From IMG/VR virus record IMGVR_UViG_3300031555_003590, positions 32,001-96,000 of that record: 64,000 nt of DNA; one strand, written 5' to 3'. Of this stretch, positions 3,375 through 42,278 are shown in pieces; position 1 is the first letter of the stretch, and the number at the start of each line of letters is the position of its first letter. The notes under the pieces were generated by a model. The model was not told the DNA's origin. It searched no databases and worked only from the letters and a program-made list of their open reading frames with translations. Source of the stretch: a virus. Lineage: Duplodnaviria > Caudoviricetes. A program made the translations under genes and the position numbers.

Positions 3375-6300
3375 TTATGGACGTGCCATTGTAGTTACAG
3401 ATCTAGTATTAGTTTTAGTGGCAGCGCTAAATGCTGAAGTAGAACTTTTAACTTTATTACGTGATCCTAACGAATTAATTGAATCTCTTAAACCTTTATC
3501 AACAAAATCTTTTTGATTAAGTGCAGTAAGTAAATCAGAAGAAGACCCAGTATTTCTAGTGATATATGTTAATTGAACTATAATTTCATTTAATAATCTA
3601 ATTGTAGTTTCAGGATCTATAGTTCTAGGAATATTAACTACTGGAATATTTGCATCACTTGAAGATTGATATACTGGTGGATTATAAGTAGAACTACTTG
3701 TACTAATTTGTTTTTGTTGATAATTATTTTGAGAAGATTGAGTTATTCCTGTTACAGTTGGAGTTTTAGTTGCATAATTAGATTGATGAATTGTACTTGA
3801 ATCAATATCATCTGCTCCACCTATAGCATCATTATTTTCCTTCCATTCACCTTTCATCTTGTCATAATAATACTTAGCATATTTCTGGCGTTCAGAAAGT
3901 TTTACCCATTCAATATTAGGATCAATACCTTCCCAATCTTTTAAGAATACTCTTGCAGCTTTAGAAGTACTTGATTCTGCAGTAGTCCAATTAGACATAA
4001 AATCTCTATAGCCACCATTTGAAGATGGTTGAATTGAATATTGTAATTGTGCTCCCATGTCATACCAATTCATACCAAGCTTATTTGCGAATTTCATTAA
4101 CCTAGTTGCAGCAGGACCAGTAAATTGACCTAAACCGAGACCAGGTCTAGGTATTCCATCATCACCTTTATATGCTTCTTCATTAATACTAAGACCCTTA
4201 CTAGCATAATCAGCAAATAGTTGTTCAGTGAATGATTTAGGATTTTCTAAAGCTTCAGTTTTCTTAGGACCAATTCGATATTTTTCATTATATATAGATT
4301 CGACTGCAGTTGGATCAATACCACTTTCATGAGACCAGTTACCAAGTACTCCAGCTATATTAATATCAGGAATATTATAATTCTTTAAAAATTGATATGT
4401 TTGCTTAGCATTCTCTTCAGCATCATCTGTTGTTTGAATATTAGCAATAGATGCAATTTCAGAATCAGAAAGTTCAACATTAACATCGTTTGATTCTATA
4501 TCATTAGATTCAGAATCACCAAATAAACCTCCAGAAATCCAATTTAATATTTTACTACCAAAGGATTTCAGTGTATTTAGTAATTTTGCAAGAGGAGATT
4601 CACTGTTAATTGTTGAAGTTCCATCTGTTGCATTTCTATTAACATCAGCCGTATGAACTGAATCAGATGTATTAATAAAATTAGATAATGTTGTACCAGC
4701 AGTTACATTAGAAAGAGGATTGATTGGTTTACCATTAGAATCTTCAATTTGATAATGTAAATGTGGTCCGCTAGAATTACCAGTAGATCCCATTTCACCA
4801 ATTTTATCACCAATACGAACTCGTGATCCAACTTTAATTGATGCTGGAATTGAATTGGCTTTAAGATGCATATTTTTAATAGTATATCCATCATCAGTTT
4901 TAATCCATACCATATTACCACCCATCTTAGTACTAGTACCAAGACCAGTATGGCTATCAGGTACACTTGATTCTACTAATGATACTGTACCATTATATCT
5001 TGAGCCAATATCAGCTGAATCTCCATAAGTTTCAGGACGAAGATCTATACCGTTATGGTAATCTTCTTTTGATCCATTACCATCTAAATCTCTCCATCCA
5101 AAATAGCTAGTAATATGTAATGGTTTATTAAGAGGATTTCCTCCAGATTTAATAGTAGATGATTGAGATTGTCCAGTTGATTTATTTTGAGATGCATTAG
5201 AACTATCTCCACCTACTCCTTCAGTGCTACTTGGAGATTCTTCAACAGTTGAGAATGCCTCACCTAATGAATCCCAACCAGATTCAAGTTTATCAATAAA
5301 CCAATTTTTGATTTTATCTATACCTTTTCCAATAAAATTTCCAATTCCATGGAATATTCCAATTGCACTCTGGAATAGTTTATTAATTCCAAATGATGCT
5401 TTCCATATTCCAGATAATGGATCTCCATTTTGAAGTTCAAGTTTGGTATTCCAAATATCCATAACTTTTCCATCATTAGCTAATGTTGAAATTTGTTCAT
5501 TTGCAGAATCTAAACTTTGATAGTTACCTTGAGTTATGGATACCATTTCACTGAAAGCTTTTGAAATTTTATTACCAACCCAATGAACTGCAGTTCTTGG
5601 ATAATTAATAAGTTTTGCAACTGTAAAAATTCCACTCATTATTCCATTAAGAGGATTTCCTTCATTTTCTTGTATAACGACATTACTTAATCCTTCAAAA
5701 TCGCCAGCTTTGGCATTTATACTTAATTCATCAATACCAGCATCAAGTGAATCTTTTGCAGTTTTAATAGTTTCCATTATTTCATTAAATGGACCCTTTA
5801 TCTTATTGCCCAACCAATGAAATGCAGTAGGAACGTAATGAATTATTTTATCAATACTAAATATTGCACTTCCAATTTTTCCAAGTGGATTCTCAGGATC
5901 ATCTTCAAGCACAATAGAACTTAGTGCTCCAAAATCTCCTGTTTTACTAGCAGCATTAAGATTTTCATGATTAGTGCTTAAAGTACTCATAGTATTTTTA
6001 ACTTTATTTACAATACTATTGAATTTATCTTTTATTTTAATACCAACCCAACTTATTGCTGCTGTAGGAACATTTAAATATTTAACAATATTAAATATTG
6101 ATTCAGTAAATCCTCCTACTGGGTTTTCTGGATCATTTTGGAATGTTAAATTTAATACTCCTGAAATATCTCCTCTTCTAGCTGTATCATTAATAGTACT
6201 AGTATTACTACTTAATACATCTATACTATTTTTAACTTTATTAATAGCTCCACCTATAACATTGCCAATTTTATTTCCAATAACTTTAAAAATAGCCTGT

Positions 6301-9300
6301 GGTATAATACTAATACGAGATGAAATAATTGCAGCTTTCATAAAACCATTCATCGGATTTTCAGGATCATCTTCTATTTTAAATAAATCTTTTAAATCAG
6401 ATGATTTATCTTTTAATAAATTTTTAGCATATTCTTGTTCATTTGATAATTTATTACCAAAATTCTTTATTTTATCAATAAAACCGCTAAATTTATCACC
6501 AATACCACTAGAAAAATTTTTAATATTAGATCCAATTGTTGATATAGTAGATGGATTTTTAGTGCCATCTTCATTAGTACTACCAACAAAGAAATTCTTA
6601 ATACCAGATCTAATTCCTTTAAGACCGCCAGATGTTTTTATACTTCCATCATCAGTAATTACTGGCATACCATTTTCATCATATACTGTTTTACCATTCC
6701 AAATACGACTAAATACTCCTTTATTAGTCATATCATTATACTCAGCAGTAGATAAATTTGAACCAGTTTGTTCATTATAATATTCTACTTGAGAAGACAT
6801 ATTAGATTGTTTTTGATCTAATTTATCTTCACCCATTAGAGCTTTATATGCTGCTTCCGCTAGAATTTGACGAATGCCTTTTCCATCATTTAATGGAGCA
6901 ATTATAAGATCGACAATTTCAATTAAACCTACATATGGAAGCCCGTCAAATACAGCACCTAGTGCAGCAGCAATTGTAGTCATCAATCCATCAACATCAT
7001 TAGGTGATACACTAAATAAATTTGCAGCATTCATTCCACCTAAAACAGCTCCACCAGCTGACATTACTGCAATACTAACACCTAATGTTACTCCAGCTCC
7101 TACTGCTTTACCAGTTTCTTTAGCAAAAATTTTAGTAACAACAGATCCGAGTTTCTTCAATACAGGTTCAGTAATTTTGGAAGTAAATTTTCCAATTAAG
7201 TCTTTTAATTTACTAGCAATTGGTTTGAATGTTTTACTTGATGCAAGTTTTTCTCCTAAATTTTTTAATACTTCAATTATTTTTTTAGCAATAGTATTAA
7301 GAGTACCACCTTCATCAAGAATACTATTAGTAAGTTTTTTAGTAGCTTTGCCTATAGGACCTACTCCTAATGTTGAACTTACTTGAGTTACAGCTTCAGT
7401 TCCACGACCAAGCATATCAGATGATTCTTCATCCATGCCTACTTTTTCTGCTATATTGCTTACAAGCCAATTAGCACCTTTACCAGCCACTGATCCAATT
7501 CCAGTTCTAAGTGCCATTTTACCCATAGCTTGCATAGGTTTAGATTTAAAAACACCTTTAGCTTTATTTAAGTTTTGTCGTGCTCTCATGCCACTTGCAG
7601 TTGCATCTCCATATTTAGCAGCATCCATAGCATTTAATCCAATACCATGTTGAAGTCCTGCAGACATTAAATTACTTCCAGCAACTAATCCAGCATTACG
7701 CCATATTGAATTTTTTGCTCTAGTTACATTTTGATTTACAATTTCATTTCCAGCTGCATCAGTATTTACATGAGTTAAATCTGCAAGAGGATTAAAATAA
7801 TCAATTTCACTATCGGCTTGAAATCCTAAAGGAGCTGTCAATGTATTAAGAACAACATTTTCTTTTTCTCCTCCATTTACAACCCAATCTAAAAGATTAC
7901 TTGCACCTTGTCCGAATTTTGTAAGAAGATCATCAAGCTTACCAGTAAATCCTAATACTGCTGCTATTAAAGCTGCAATTCCCATAGGACCGCCAAGAAC
8001 ATCTTTAATATTAGATAAAACCCCACCAATTTTATCCCAAATACTTGTTTTTTCTTCATCTGATTCTTGAGATTTCTTTTTCTGTCCACCCATTAAATTT
8101 TTTAATCTATTTAATATAGTGGATTTATTTGGATTTTTCTTAGCTCCTTCATCGATAAGATTAGTAACTTCTCTATGTTCGCTATCAGTTATAACATCAT
8201 TACTAGCAATGATAGATGCAGCTGCAGGAATAGTACTACTAATAATTTCATTATCATTATTATCAGATTTACCAATAGATTTCTTTTTACCAGTAATAAA
8301 CTTAATAATTTCATCTAATCTTTCATGTAATCCTTTATCATGAGTAAAAATAGATCCTTCTGTAGTTCCATGATCTGCAAGAGTTTCAACTGCATCTTTA
8401 GTTGCCTTTGTATTTTCAGCAATTTCAGATGTTAACTCAACAGTTTCTTCTTTAGTATAATCATCAATATTTAATTGATCTCTTTCAATATCTTGATTTT
8501 CTTTCCAAGATTCCCAATCTTTACGTCCACTTACACGGTGTCTCTTTACAACTTTAATCATTTTTCCAGGAGGTCCATCTGGATCTTGTACATAATCAGC
8601 TTCATAGCTATTATTATAATATCCGCTTTCAGCCTTATCCATATCAGCATCAGCTTTTTGAGATTTTATACGCTGATTAATCTTATCTCTACCTTCTTTA
8701 CCAGCAATCATTTTAGCAATAGAATTTAATCCACCACCAATAACTGCGCCACCAGTTTCAGTTCCTCCTCGAACAAGATTACCAATTGCTGTAATTGGAG
8801 CTTTAGCAACATTTAATGGGAACATTAAGAATTTCTTTAAAAGTCCACCCATTCCCTTGAATACTTTTCCAAATGCTGTATCGGCAACTTTACCAGCAGC
8901 ATTAGACATTCTTTCTTTAATTGCTTCTCCAATATTAGATAATGGACCCATAATATTTTTCTTTAATACAGAACCAAAGGAAGTCATAGTTTTACCAATC
9001 TGATATCGAATTGGATCTGTTATGTTATCTACAACTTTACCAATTAATCCTCTTCTTTTATCTCGATCTTTCTTTTTATCTCCTTCATGTTCTTTATCAC
9101 CAAATAATAGTTTTTTAATTTTTGATCCTATTCCACTTGTTTGACTAATTGCATTTCCTGCAATACCGCCCATTATAAGTCCAAGTGGACCTCCTAAAAT
9201 ACCAGCACCAAGCATTGAACCAATAGCTGTACTAAATATTTTATTACGTTTATTATCTATACTAGAATCCTTATCTTCTTTATCGCCATAATTAAAATAT

Positions 9301-38152: not shown

Positions 38153-39560
38153 TTGAAAATTAACATATTGGATTATGAACAATTAATTGCAGTTAATAAA
38201 TTGCAAGAAGTAACATCTCCAAGATTATTTTCAAATAAAATGATGTATGATCCAGAAGGTATTTTATCATCAGAAATTTTTGGTATTTCAAAAGGTGACA
38301 GACGTAGTACATTTGCATATATTGATCTTAAGCGTCCATATATTCATCCACATATTTATGCAAAAGTATTAAAATCAATGTATAAAAATATCATTTATAT
38401 TGTTTCTGGTCAACGATATTATTCCGTTAAAGATGGTGTATTAGTTGAAGATGATGATAATGGATGGACTGGATTACAATCATTATATGACCATTGGAAT
38501 GAAATTAATTGGAAAAAAAGTAAATCTGCAAATAGTGTAAATAAAAAATTAATGGAAAATTTAACTAGAGATCAAGTTTTTATTACAAAATTTTTAGTAT
38601 GCCCTCCAGCATACCGTGATGTATTATTAGCTGGTACAGTTGATTCATCTGATCATGTTAATGAATTAAATGATTTATATGTTAGATTAATTAGAATGGT
38701 ATCATTATTATCTGAGGGAGGTTTATTTGCAGCAACACAATACGCAACCCAATCAAAAATCCAAGATACATTAGTAGATATTATGATTTATTTCAAGAAT
38801 ATGATATCTAAAAAGAAGGGTCTTATTAGACAAAATTTGATTGGTAAAAGTGTAACATATGGTGTTAGAGCAGTTATTTCAGCTCCTTCATATAACCATG
38901 AACGTATTACAGATAATATTATAGATATTGAACATACTGCAGTTCCAATTTCAATGGCATGTTCATTATTTTATCCATTTATAGAAGCCTGGTTAAAAAA
39001 TTTCTTTACTAGAGAAATTATTAATGATCCAAATATTGTAACATTTTATGATTATGAAACTAAAAAAGAGGTTACTGCAATTATTAAAGATCCAGATATC
39101 CAATTTTCTGAAAAAAATATTAAAAAGATGATCAATGATTATTGTTTAAATCCTGATAATCGTTTTAAAGTAATAAATGTAGATATAACAATACCAGGAT
39201 CAAATATATCAAAGAAAGCATCTATTATATTGAAAGGCAAAATATTATTAGAAAATAATATTCAAACCGTATTAAATAGATCAATGACTGTTACTGATAT
39301 TTTATATTTAGCATGTGTAGATGTTTGTGAACGTAGACATATTATGGTTTCTAGATATCCTGTAGGAACTGATAAAGGTATTTATTTTAATAAAATTAGA
39401 ATTCAATCTACTACACAACATATGCATGTTATATTTAATGGAAAAGAATATCCGTTCTATCCAAAAATTGATTTTGATATCCCTCAAGATAAGATTGGAG
39501 TTCAATATATTGATACACTAGTTATGTCTAATTCTCATCTTGATGGTATGGGTGCGGATT
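38153..39560 (+). CDS. rpoC: Phage multisubunit RNA polymerase beta' subunit, exon 1
   Basis: PEGILSSEIFG, KKGLIRQNLIGKSV...RAVI and SRYP; ends ...GMGAD plus the first base of the next codon. Confidence 0.9.
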
Positions 39561-40875
39561 GGCCTCATCGTCATGATCCGCTACTGTAGTAATACAGTAC
39601 AAGAATAAGCTGGTGAACGCCTAACAAGCGGTGTGATATACATTAGTATATTGCTAACGGTAGAAGTTAAATAAGCCGGGGTAAACTAGCCCATTTACCT
39701 ATACTAAACGGACGAATAAGCTTCGTAAGAGAACCTAAGGTCTATAAATAGATAGCTTTGGTAATACCGTGCTAAGCATACAAATATTATTGTATGAAAG
39801 TGTAGAGACTAATTAGTAGGGGTATGGTGGAATGCTATACTTCGAAGTGCCAGCCTCCTAAATATAATATTCCACCATAGCGTGGTTAATTATTTAGGAT
39901 GAAGAGATAGTCCATGTAAAATTATTCATCTTTATATACTAGCTCAGGAAGAATTTCAAAATCTTGAAAATATTCTTTATTAGTATTATCTTTAAGATAC
40001 ATATCTATAGTAGTATATAATTCTTTATAGAAAGTTTTAGATTTCTCAGAATGCCTATCTCCAACAGGAAGACAATCTCCTAAAACGTTTCGTTCTAATA
40101 TATCAGCTCTTTTATTAACATTAATATAGAATATAAACCAACCTTTGTATGGTCTACCTTTACGTACAGAATTTTTTATCATGTCCTTACTAGAGTTCAT
40201 ATAATTACCAAATAATTTCATTGATTCAGAAAATATTATTTGTTTCTTATTCATATTTATACATATAATACCTTCTGATCTTAATTGTTTATCTTTTGCT
40301 ATCATTTTACGACCAATTTTATTTATATTGGCTGAAGAATGAGGAATATTATATCCACTATTAATGGAATCAAAAATATCAATAAAATAATTTTCCATAT
40401 CTATATGATTATCTCTAGTAGTCTCTGCAATAGGATACATGATAAAGTTTTCAAAACCATATTCAATCATTGCTCTAAGTATAGGTCTATAGTTACGTTT
40501 AGCTGTAGTAGAGGAATTTTTTATAGCTCTATTATATTCATATAAGTATTGAGAAGCTCTTTTTGTTAATGATGAATATGCAGTAGGACGCTGTACGCCT
40601 TGCCATATTGAATAACTAGATCCAATATATTTTGTTCCTTTTTTAATATATTCAATACAATATATGTATCCAAAAGGTTTTTCAAATGGGTCTTTTAGTT
40701 GATATTTTTTAGGAATTGGTCTAATTTGGAGAAAGTTTGACATGAGTTCTCGATTTCTTTCTAATTCAGATTGTTGCAACATAATAAATTACCTCCTTAA
40801 TTTTAAATTACTATTTGGTATGTCAGATTTAATTTTTTATTGAGGCTAGTAAAAATAAATGAATAATAAAAAAAG
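39561..40875 (+). mobile_element. Group I intron (1315 nt) in the RNAP catalytic motif, carrying an antisense endonuclease gene
   Basis: P1 GCGGATT/GATCCGC with a U-G splice pair; P10 CGTCAT pairs with 3' exon ATGACG; core TACCGTGCTAAG, GTAGAGACTA, AAGAGATAGTCC; terminal G at 40875. Confidence 0.92.
39922..40782 (-). CDS. GIY-YIG homing endonuclease, antisense within the intron
   Basis: GYIY...YIG, conserved R, E and GYN; C-terminal NUMOD1-like helix-turn-helix; its own AGGAGG RBS. Confidence 0.88.
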   Translation of the reverse strand: MLQQSELERNRELMSNFLQIRPIPKKYQLKDPFEKPFGYIYCIEYIKKGTKYIGSSYSIWQGVQRPTAYSSLTKRASQYLYEYNRAIKNSSTTAKRNYRPILRAMIEYGFENFIMYPIAETTRDNHIDMENYFIDIFDSINSGYNIPHSSANINKIGRKMIAKDKQLRSEGIICINMNKKQIIFSESMKLFGNYMNSSKDMIKNSVRKGRPYKGWFIFYINVNKRADILERNVLGDCLPVGDRHSEKSKTFYKELYTTIDMYLKDNTNKEYFQDFEILPELVYKDE

Positions 40876-42278
40876 ATGACGGAGACCAGGTCTCTGTAAG
40901 AGGTCTATGGAGTGATGAAGCAAATTTAGAAGCAGAACAAATCATGAATCAAAAAACTTCAGCATTAAATATTACTGGTACTAATGCAAAAGCAGTTGCT
41001 AAAGAAGTATTTAATTCTCTATATGAATTAACTAAAGATGGTCCTAATGGTAAACACATTAATATAGTAGATCAAAAGAAATATTTAGAATTAAAACCAG
41101 ATGATATTACTAGATCATTACTAGCAGATATGTTTGCTGATATGGTAGATTCTTCTGATAAAAATAGAAATGTTGGTAAGAAACATCCTAAACATAAAAC
41201 TTGGGATATTATTAGTGTGCCTAAGGATTATTTTTATGAAGGATTTACTGGAATGGATATGAATATTGGTAGATTTATTGCTAACAAATTTATGTTTGAG
41301 AGTAGTGGAATAATTTCTATTCTAGGTGTATTCAATAATGTAATGAATAAAGGTAGTATTGGTAGTATTGATAACCTAGTAGGTCAAATTTATATGGAAA
41401 ATAAAATTAATAGAAAACAATTCAATTCTTATATTGAACATCGTGATGCTCTAGGTTATTGGTTGAATGGTATGTTAGCTCATACTATATCTGAAAAAAT
41501 GTTAAAGCCTTTAGATAAAGTAGAAAAGAAAAAAGCTGAATTAATTAAACAATATGAGAAAGAACTTTCTGAAGGTAATATTGATGTAATGACTCAAATT
41601 AGTGATGAATTAGTTGCATATGCTAAAGAGTTACTAAAAGATGATCCTGGTATGGATTTATATTTATCAGGAGATCTAGACTTTGGTAATAATTATAAAA
41701 ATAATGCTATACTAAAAGGAGCTGTAGTTAATAAAATTACAGATGAATATGATTTTATTAGTAGCTCATTTATGAGTGGTATTGAAATTAAAGATATTCC
41801 AGCACATGCTAATAGTATCTTGGCTAGTCAATATCCTGCTTCTATTGCAACTGCAGATGCTGGATATATGGGTAAAAAGTTATTAGCATTATTACAAATG
41901 ATGGAAGTAGATTATGATATTGAAGATTGTGGTACAAAACATTTAGTTCCTATCAAAATTACTAAAACTAATTCCAAAGATATGTTGTATACATATATTG
42001 ATAATGGTAGTGGACAATTAATTATGTTAGATCGAGATAATATTAGTAGTTATATTGGAAAAACAGTAATGATGAGAAGTCCAATGACTTGTGTTACTGA
42101 TAAAATTTGTTCTAAATGTGCTGGTAATTTGTTTAATATGTTAGATGTTAAACATGCTGGATTATTTGCTACTCAAATATCACATGCTGCTTTAAATTTA
42201 GCATTAAAAGCTAAACATAATAGTCTTGTAGAATTATTTACTTTTAATCCTGATGATTTAATTGAGGATATTGAATAA
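40876..42278 (+). CDS. rpoC: Phage RNA polymerase beta' subunit, exon 2
   Basis: Splicing restores GADYDGDQ in frame with the 40944 ORF; bridge helix TADAGY, zinc site CGT...RSPMTC...CSKC, trigger-loop-like ATQIS...ALKAKH. Confidence 0.9.

Follow-up and report, generated by a model that had tools for sequence, protein, structure and literature searches.

How an essential phage gene can carry, among the codons of its catalytic motif, an element whose own gene is read from the opposite strand is the question raised by a locus in the virus record IMGVR_UViG_3300031555_003590. The window analysed here is a stretch of 64,000 nt, bases 32001-96000 of this 292,119-bp IMG/VR record, the completeness of which was estimated by CheckV as complete. 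In the window, the gene for the beta' subunit of a jumbo-phage RNA polymerase (RNAP) is interrupted, and positions 39561-40875 (plus strand) were confirmed as a group I intron that interrupts the Tyr codon of DYDGD, the metal-binding motif, and has an antisense endonuclease gene inside it.

Splice junctions in the beta' metal-binding motif

The intron is 1315 nt long, is inserted in phase 1 of the Tyr codon and ends in G40875 as omega-G. When 39560 was joined to 40876, the reading GGT GCG GAT T|AT GAC GGA GAC CAG was obtained, which encodes G-A-D-Y-D-G-D-Q. The spliced product is a single 936-codon frame, reading ...LDGMGADYDGDQVSVRGLWSDEAN..., and the predicted ligated-exon sequence is ...GCGGAUUAUGACGGA.... 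Exon 1 (38153-39560, plus strand) provides 469 codons and the first base of the Tyr codon, and exon 2 (40876-42278, plus strand) provides the last two bases of that codon and continues with DGDQ to the stop.

In unspliced form the exon 1 frame ends at TAG 39587-89, within helix P2 of the intron, and the open reading frames (ORFs) as called, 38153-39589 and 40944-42278, represent two beta' halves. Exon 1 matched PHROG 2986 ('RNA polymerase beta subunit') with an E value of 1e-72, and exon 2 matched PHROG 2962, which bears the same description, with an E value of 4e-56. By tblastn, the annotated beta' genes of AR9-like Bacillus, Staphylococcus, Listeria and Yersinia jumbo phages matched exon 1 at about 30% identity; the Pfam RNAP families gave no match among the window proteins. 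Homology and the DxDGD motif are both present and place the gene with the jumbo-phage beta' genes, the motif being whole only after splicing. For annotation, the consequence is that gene callers break beta' into two orphan ORFs and a 'hypothetical' reverse gene.

The results from relatives lacking the intron were consistent with this junction. In L014 and L015, two related phage contigs from IMG/VR, the gene is uninterrupted at identical nucleotides and reads GMGADYDGDQ, with exon 1 being 79% and 76% identical to that of the window, respectively. An AR9-like phage has GGDYDGDTVSLRGVFSKEAN where the window has GADYDGDQVSVRGLWSDEAN, and the intron-less AR9-like allele, that of phage Goe21, reads ...ALGGDYDGDTVSLRGVFSKEAN... 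at the matching place. Because these intron-less relatives read through the site, the junction is known to the nucleotide.

The same results bear on the reading that there is no intron at all, and that 38153-39589 and 40944-42278 are separate beta' fragment genes with a free-standing endonuclease between them. AR9-like phages do split beta' into separate genes shortly after the motif, and the two halves here match different PHROGs. However, a split at this place would cut DxDGD itself, the exon 2 homology begins at 40878, which is 66 nt before the first ATG (40944) and has no ribosome-binding site (RBS) there, the relatives have an uninterrupted gene, and a group I core with covariation is found in the RNA between the two halves. 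Two free-standing fragment genes are already contradicted by these points and are hardly credible.

The phage around this gene has a G+C content of 28% over the whole record, and a search of sequencing runs found near-identical DNA in animal faeces metagenomes only. A whole-genome Rfam scan matched the group I model RF00028 in at least eight other places, indicating an intron-rich jumbo phage. At the homing site, exon 2 positions 40882-40894 form the palindrome GAGACC-N-GGTCTC, which resembles a terminator hairpin on the minus strand; this sequence is not palindromic in the intron-less relatives.

A covarying ribozyme core, and a predicted closing stem

Since the Rfam group I model alone was weak for this intron, its structure was built by comparison. 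The window intron was aligned with those of L016, L019, L030, L022, L023, L021 and L024, which are same-family introns at the matching beta' site. Across these 8 introns, compensatory double changes were found at 39 of the 77 proposed pairs, and standard pairs filled 558 of 609 cells (92%). The conserved group I core was all present, including the P3-P8 and P4-P6 domains, the P3/P7 pseudoknot, a bulged P7, the G-C guanosine-binding pair and J8/7. The core appears IA-like, with a P7.2 hairpin between P7 and the 3' strand of P3, and the intron RNA would be expected to self-splice with guanosine.

The exons are aligned by a P1 and P10 guide at 39554-39581 (plus strand). In P1, GCGGAUU (39554-60) pairs with GAUCCGC (39575-81), so that the 5' splice site carries a U39560.G39575 wobble; in P10, which directly adjoins P1, CGUCAU (39569-74) pairs with AUGACG of exon 2 (40876-81). 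P1 was paired in 54 of 56 cells across the 8 introns, with compensatory changes at 6 of its 7 pairs, and it tracks synonymous exon changes in the Ala and Asp codons (GAU-U/GAUC to GAC-U/GGUC, and GCG/CGC to GCC/GGC). The initial annotation had proposed that joining 39560 to 40876 restores DxDGD and fuses two ORFs, and that P1 and P10 mark both junctions. The former was borne out by the 936-codon frame and by L014 and L015, the latter by the wobble at the 5' site, P10 and omega-G; the comparison with related phages that it had called for was run, and the uninterrupted alleles agree with the junction.

Downstream of P1 lies P2 (39582-39599, plus strand), a 7-bp hairpin with a GUAA (GNRA) loop. 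Six stem variants of P2 were seen among seven aligned sequences, every one paired at 7/7 positions, and the loop was always GUAA or GCAA. P3 (39609-39854, plus strand) is formed by GCUGGU (39609-14) and GCCAGC (39849-54) and encloses P4-P6, the 5' strand of P7 and P7.2; it has three compensatory pairs (GCUGGU/GCCAGC, GUUGGU/GCUAAC and UUUGAU/GUCAAA). From the alignment and helix table, an extra hairpin was placed between P3 and P4 (39627-39655, plus strand), which is present in 5 of the 8 related introns and not in L021, L022 or L023. P4 (39657-39770, plus strand) pairs ACGGU (39657-61) with ACCGU (39766-70) and is invariant. It encloses a three-helix arm (39663-68/39719-24, 39675-78/39709-13 and 39680-85/39694-99) followed by the P5 hairpin (39733-62), and the arm helices and P5 together have 10 compensatory pairs. 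P6 (GC/GU) and the P6a hairpin occupy 39771-39801 (plus strand), where P6a pairs 39777-83 with 39790-96 and has four compensatory pairs.

P7 (39805-39913, plus strand) pairs G39805 and 39807-10 with 39909-13, leaving A39806 bulged. Its span holds P7.2 (39819-25/39837-43), the 3' strand of P3, P8 (39856-64/39891-99) and J8/7, which reads UGAAGAGAU (39900-08). Compensatory pairs numbered 6 in P7.2, 4 in P8 and 1 in P7, and the J8/7-P7 block UGAAGAGAUAGUCC fits the Rfam consensus, with P8 aligned as well. Between P7 and the 3' strand of P3, one hairpin (39819-43) is found in the window, L016 and L019, and two in L030, L022 and L021. Introns of Twort-like, Brochothrix A9, SPbeta-like, phage G and Lak phages match the region 39702-39811 at about 75% identity, and an exact motif from this region is present in 34 IMG/VR contigs.

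Several other pairings were considered and dropped. P4 at ACGG 39707-10, P3 at UACCUAUACU/AGUAGGGGUA and P3 at GCCGG 39675-79 have partners that vary uncompensated in L016 and L022, whereas the adopted helices covary. A pairing of the loop CUAGCC (39686-91) with GGCUAG of the intron tail is lost in L019, and the tail pairs better with 39938-46, as part of the closing stem described below.

We also observed that the P7.2 region 39821-39833 (GGUAUGGUGGAAU) and the P8 loop 39869-39881 (AUUCCACCAUAGC) are complementary over 12-13 nt. When 39800-39915 is folded for minimum energy, this pairing forms, in competition with P7.2 and P8. L016 and L019 do not keep it, and it may represent either a trap for misfolding or a loop-loop contact specific to the window. 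In L016, the P8 loop (4300-4500) is enlarged by an insertion of about 220 nt, besides the antisense gene after P7. In L021 and L024, P1, P10 and the required DxDGD reading put the 3' splice site after A, not the universal G, and taking the nearest G as the 3' end would remove one catalytic Asp; either omega is not G in these introns or the contigs contain errors.

Beyond P7, the insert is bracketed by a closing stem. Its 5' arm (39920-39956, plus strand) overlaps the last codons of the antisense gene and pairs with a 3' arm at 40830-40869 (plus strand), which lies in the 93-nt intron tail (40783-40875). The predicted energy was -22.7 kcal/mol (RNAduplex), and 0 of 300 shuffled tails were as good; a repeat finder listed the inverted-repeat core, 39921-43 / 40845-67, as 83% complementary. 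Since the stem spans from near P7, starting 7 nt past it, to near omega-G, stopping 6 nt short of it, the entire insert is closed off by what amounts to an extended P9-like helix. Equivalents of this stem were found in L016, L019 and L024. The pairing supports a predicted closing stem for the window phage, and not a universal one.

The antisense endonuclease gene and its conservation

The gene inside the intron (39922-40782, minus strand) encodes a GIY-YIG homing endonuclease of 286 aa and is antisense to both the intron and the host gene. It lies 8 nt past the 3' strand of P7, a distance of 93 nt separates its ATG (40780-82) from the 3' splice site, and an RBS, AAGGAGGT (40791-40798, minus strand), is located 8 nt upstream of the ATG. 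Full-length homologues (n = 75, 43-61% identity) were found in metagenomic contigs, indicating that this is a real gene. In 23 aligned homologues, G38-Y-I-Y41...Y52-I-G54, R75, E130 and N145 are invariant, and the motif blocks read GYIYCIE...KYIGS, K74-R75, E130 and G-Y-N145. Among 23 family members searched against Pfam (E<=0.01), SegE_GIY-YIG PF19835 was matched by 22/23 and GIY-YIG PF01541 by 9/23; the window protein itself scored 18 bits against PF19835, for which the cut-off is 25 bits. It was also assigned to PHROG 5123, 'homing endonuclease with GIY-YIG motif'.

The structural comparison gave a similar result. With a profile of the family, I-TevI 1LN0 was aligned over both motif blocks, and the AlphaFold2 (AF2) model of the endonuclease had a predicted local distance difference test (pLDDT) value of 87.8. 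With Foldseek, the top matches were the I-TevI catalytic domain structures 1LN0/1MK0 (probability 1.00, template modelling (TM) score 0.77-0.80 over the target, 0.80 for 1LN0), next came R.Eco29kI, and then UvrC GIY-YIG domains. The C-terminal half showed a weak structural match to I-HmuI (E 0.29) and, by eye, resembles the DNA-binding repeats of intron nucleases. The catalytic residues, the fold and AAGGAGGT thus uphold the original description, in which the GIY-YIG gene is inverted, follows P7 and has an RBS of its own. By megablast and tblastn, neither the region nor the endonuclease had a match among the INPHARED phages. A minus-strand ORF beside rpoC1 in Goe21 was compared and is no relative of the endonuclease.

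Logan contigs (DNA, several runs) bridge both intron-exon borders and both ORF borders with zero differences, so the orientation is no assembly artefact. The layout was further examined in ten contigs, comprising the window, seven homologue loci, one beta' locus found by protein similarity, and two found via the intron motif (one a duplicate). The endonuclease gene was antisense between two beta' exons in 10/10 contigs. In the six reliably measured contigs, including the window, the stop lies 7-13 nt after P7, the ATG precedes the 3' splice site by 87-119 nt, and an A/G-rich RBS of GGAG/GGGA type is present at the matching position. Of six relatives, five have this RBS; the sixth, L019, stands outside the measured set, its boundary figures being unreliable as the script took an upstream ATG. 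Identity to the window falls to about 50% for the host beta' and to 43-44% for the endonuclease, and the divergence of the two is correlated (Spearman 0.72, 28 non-independent pairs). This joint divergence indicates an old association.

The ribozyme core is less constant than the cassette. L018 has the same antisense cassette at the same site, and its core shares only the universal J8/7-P7 block with the window. In L025, the cassette stands behind yet another core with two J8/7-like blocks, and exon 2 reads DGDELNQLALP; its host was read as a putatively different beta' gene. The comparison showed that at least three unrelated ribozyme cores carry the cassette. In other group I introns the layout was different: ORFs near the other RF00028 matches in the genome were co-oriented or lacking, and in the 34 introns sharing the family motif, ORFs were co-oriented and mostly located around P5/P6.

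The beta' motif site is, judging from these alleles, a hot spot for introns. L017, whose beta' is 68% identical, has a different, ORF-less group I intron (6408-6778) 7 nt upstream of the window's site, after the GGT of GMG. L022, L023 and L021 have two tandem group I introns upstream of or at the site. The 7-nt micro-exon between the two, GGCGACU or GGUGACU, gives the Gly/Ala and first Asp codons and most of the second intron's P1. In L018 (reverse strand, ~1666-2523 in beta' orientation), a second intron with a sense HNH_3 endonuclease gene lies just upstream, and this beta' thus has a sense HNH intron beside an antisense GIY-YIG intron. The distant beta' genes of L045 and L058 (33-38% identical) carry a same-family intron after the first Asp codon (L045:2697-4069), with a GIY-YIG gene that is sense, 28% identical and located in P6; as a search for the Y-D-G codons did not locate them, the 3' junction of the L045 and L058 introns is tentative.

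The bracketing repeat raises the idea that the cassette is invertible, with recombination at 39921-43 / 40845-67 flipping the gene while leaving the RNA stem unharmed, and both forms coexisting or alternating. The inverted repeat brackets the insert in the window and in three relatives, and the introns of L045 and L058 carry a sense GIY-YIG gene. However, this endonuclease family was antisense in every one of the ten contigs, the repeat extends over a mere 23 nt with mismatches (83%), and the sense genes in L045 and L058 are only 28% identical and are in P6, not after P7. The DNA contigs showed no intron-less joint, no inverted form and no strand-changing joints, at a depth of only ~3-4x. We regard an invertible cassette as very improbable.

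Proposed expression and homing, and relation to known systems

Taken as a mobile-type group I intron with an IA-like core akin to the Twort/A9 type and an antisense nuclease cassette, the locus would probably work as follows, and we hold this account with good though not full confidence. The pre-mRNA would self-splice, with P1 and P10 aligning the exons, and in the window phage the stem of ~37 nt flanking the insert would return the 3' splice site, ~960 nt off, to P7. The endonuclease would be made from its own minus-strand transcript, starting in the intron tail or in exon 2; such a separate transcript is the likely route of expression. By analogy with phiPA3, the enzyme would cut the intron-less beta' of co-infecting relatives near the DYDGD site, leading to homing or exclusion. 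The antisense layout would uncouple nuclease expression from host-gene transcription and keep ribosomes off the long insert in the pre-mRNA, and the cassette may swap between cores by recombination in the conserved J8/7-P7 block and exon 2.

Several results weigh against this account. In the search of sequencing runs, no RNA run with this sequence was found that would show splicing or a minus-strand transcript. Upstream of the endonuclease gene in the window, no AR9-early-type AT-rich motif was found at <=1 mismatch, and sigma-70-like sites were at or below chance. The cleavage target of the enzyme is putative. RF00028 scored 24.2 bits on a 396-nt scan, aligning only P8, J8/7, P7 and P9, where the gathering score is 50, and the wider scans, of 3.5 kb and of the whole genome, missed the intron. 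The model cannot span the extra hairpins, and the cut-off is an operational one and no structural feature. No stem equivalent to the closing stem was found in L022, L023, L021 or L018. Finally, as the closest relatives, L014 and L015, are without the intron, a recent gain would be indistinguishable from a loss.

The promoter consensus was that of AR9 early genes (PMC5312081) and may not be the promoter class of the window phage. In AR9 itself, the intron gene g190, lying in g189, has its own early promoter (PMC5312081). In the window, TATATATTAT had 80 matches with 98 expected, so that it is not enriched, and none is near the gene; the AR9 late motif was not found. On the minus strand upstream of the ATG, TATATATTAT occurs at 44 nt in L019 and GATATATTAT at 43 nt in L016.

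These results also touch the view that the intron is real and its antisense gene silent or barely expressed, a promoter-less passenger in an effectively immobile, vertically inherited intron. Such a view is in line with the 93-nt tail of the window, which has no promoter motif where two relatives have an AR9-early-like one, with the parallel divergence of endonuclease and host gene, and with DNA runs that show no intron-minus joint. Homing-endonuclease genes that are out of use normally decay, whereas this ORF is intact and its catalytic residues and near-perfect RBS are kept at 43-61% identity; moreover, the promoter motifs searched may belong to other classes than those the window phage uses. 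A silent passenger therefore seems unlikely to us, and we favour an expressed nuclease.

Another proposal is that the antisense layout is a regulatory device, in which the mRNA of the nuclease would be silenced by the abundant pre-mRNA or by the excised intron, making homing self-limiting, or transcription of the nuclease would run head-on into that of beta' or disturb its splicing. The second form is that of the initial annotation, which also had intron mobility coupled to the production of RNAP. It follows from the layout that intron RNA and endonuclease mRNA are perfectly complementary over 861 nt, the orientation is kept in all ten contigs and with three cores, which suggests selection on the layout, and antisense interference has been discussed for nuclear ribosomal DNA (rDNA) introns (PMC9548176). 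The kept orientation could equally reflect inheritance from one ancestral cassette, and transcripts separated in time would avoid the interaction. We consider a regulatory device doubtful. The same doubt applies to the further idea that inversion was selected as an RNA feedback, in which strong transcription of the RNAP gene would shut the nuclease off and early nuclease transcription would delay splicing. If true, this would be a built-in timer by which a selfish element is tied to the transcription apparatus of the phage itself.

With an expressed antisense nuclease preferred, the locus can be compared with known systems. The nearest parallels in layout are eukaryotic. Antisense endonuclease genes in P9 of group I introns in myxomycete nuclear rDNA are documented and are expressed from the opposite strand (PMC9548176). 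In Didymium Dir.S956-2 and Dsq.L2066/I-DsqI, which encode His-Cys box enzymes, the gene is in the P9 region and opposite to the ribozyme and host gene, as in the window, a separate transcript is needed and the same concern about antisense interference applies (PMC9548176). Unlike the window, these introns are in eukaryotic rRNA genes, have IE/IC1 ribozymes and His-Cys box enzymes, and involve RNA polymerase II, polyadenylation and spliceosomal introns, while nucleolar separation keeps the two transcripts apart (PMC9548176). The window, by contrast, has an essential protein-coding phage gene, a GIY-YIG enzyme, a bacterial-type RBS and no known separating compartment.

Among phages, the T4 introns in td, nrdB and nrdD(sunY) (I-TevI, I-TevII and I-TevIII) are also group IA introns in phage genes, their endonuclease ORF is looped from a peripheral helix, and I-TevI has the closest solved catalytic-domain fold. 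The T4 sunY ORF is also 3' of the core and far from the 3' splice site. Unlike the window intron, the T4 introns sit in genes of nucleotide metabolism, not of RNAP, and all their ORFs are, to our knowledge, co-oriented with the intron; more broadly, endonuclease genes of phage and bacterial introns are, as far as we know, taken to be co-oriented, and their expression is understood in that frame. Promoters of the T4 intron ORFs have been discussed (PMC2988022).

The introns of phiPA3 and AR9/PBS1 resemble that of the window in being group I introns with a homing endonuclease in a multisubunit RNAP gene of a jumbo phage. The endonuclease of the phiPA3 RNAP-gene intron harms co-infecting phage, according to a review of that work (Birkholz et al. 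2024, as reviewed in PMC12908238), and AR9/PBS1 has introns in RNAP and other genes (PMC5312081). These accounts, in which we found no antisense orientation reported for either phage, fit the initial statement that introns in jumbo-phage RNAP genes are known. The window differs from both in having one fused 936-aa beta' and an interruption within the metal-binding motif itself. With the IA2 introns of Twort, Brochothrix A9 and SPbeta type it shares ~75% identity in P4-P6 and a conserved P5-arm motif. The A9 intron has P7.1/P7.2 between P7 and P3' (Rfam alignments), whereas the window is without P7.1, and, unlike this type, the window intron has the extra P3-P4 hairpin and an ORF after P7 on the opposite strand.

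It had also been stated at the outset that phage intron endonucleases are normally co-oriented, which fits the genome survey, the 34-intron set and the literature. The present layout is less unprecedented than this would imply, as nuclear rDNA cases exist (PMC9548176). In the literature searched, antisense intron endonuclease genes were found only in eukaryotic nuclear rDNA and no phage or bacterial example was met, a coverage that is incomplete and no proof of absence. New here is the prokaryotic, essential protein-coding setting, together with a GIY-YIG enzyme and a cassette persisting across ribozymes.

In a clade of gut jumbo phages, the inverted gene is thus retained, invariably at the codons of the RNAP active site, while the ribozyme cores are interchangeable. 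If experimentally confirmed, the locus would offer a prokaryotic model for expressing an antisense homing-endonuclease gene without harm to an essential host gene; how such a gene is expressed harmlessly is an open question for the nuclear rDNA cases too. Confirmation would also mean that the persistent unit is the nuclease cassette and its target site, not the ribozyme, and it would widen the 'weaponised intron' idea from phiPA3 to another enzyme family and phage group.

Two further observations concern other interrupted genes. At 80522-80536 of the window (genome 112522-112536), a second beta' gene contains CTAAATGCAGACTTT (LNADF), a micro-exon of 15 nt; G is the last base of the sequence before it, and a group I P4-like AAUUGCGGGAAAC is present in the sequence after it. 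Given these flanks, both RNAP paralogues would be cut within the catalytic motif. In L013 (Brochothrix phage A9), the two annotated large-terminase fragments are separated by three group I introns in tandem (532-1667), which resemble one another, and the short reverse-strand ORFs gp66-gp71 annotated over them are probably spurious.

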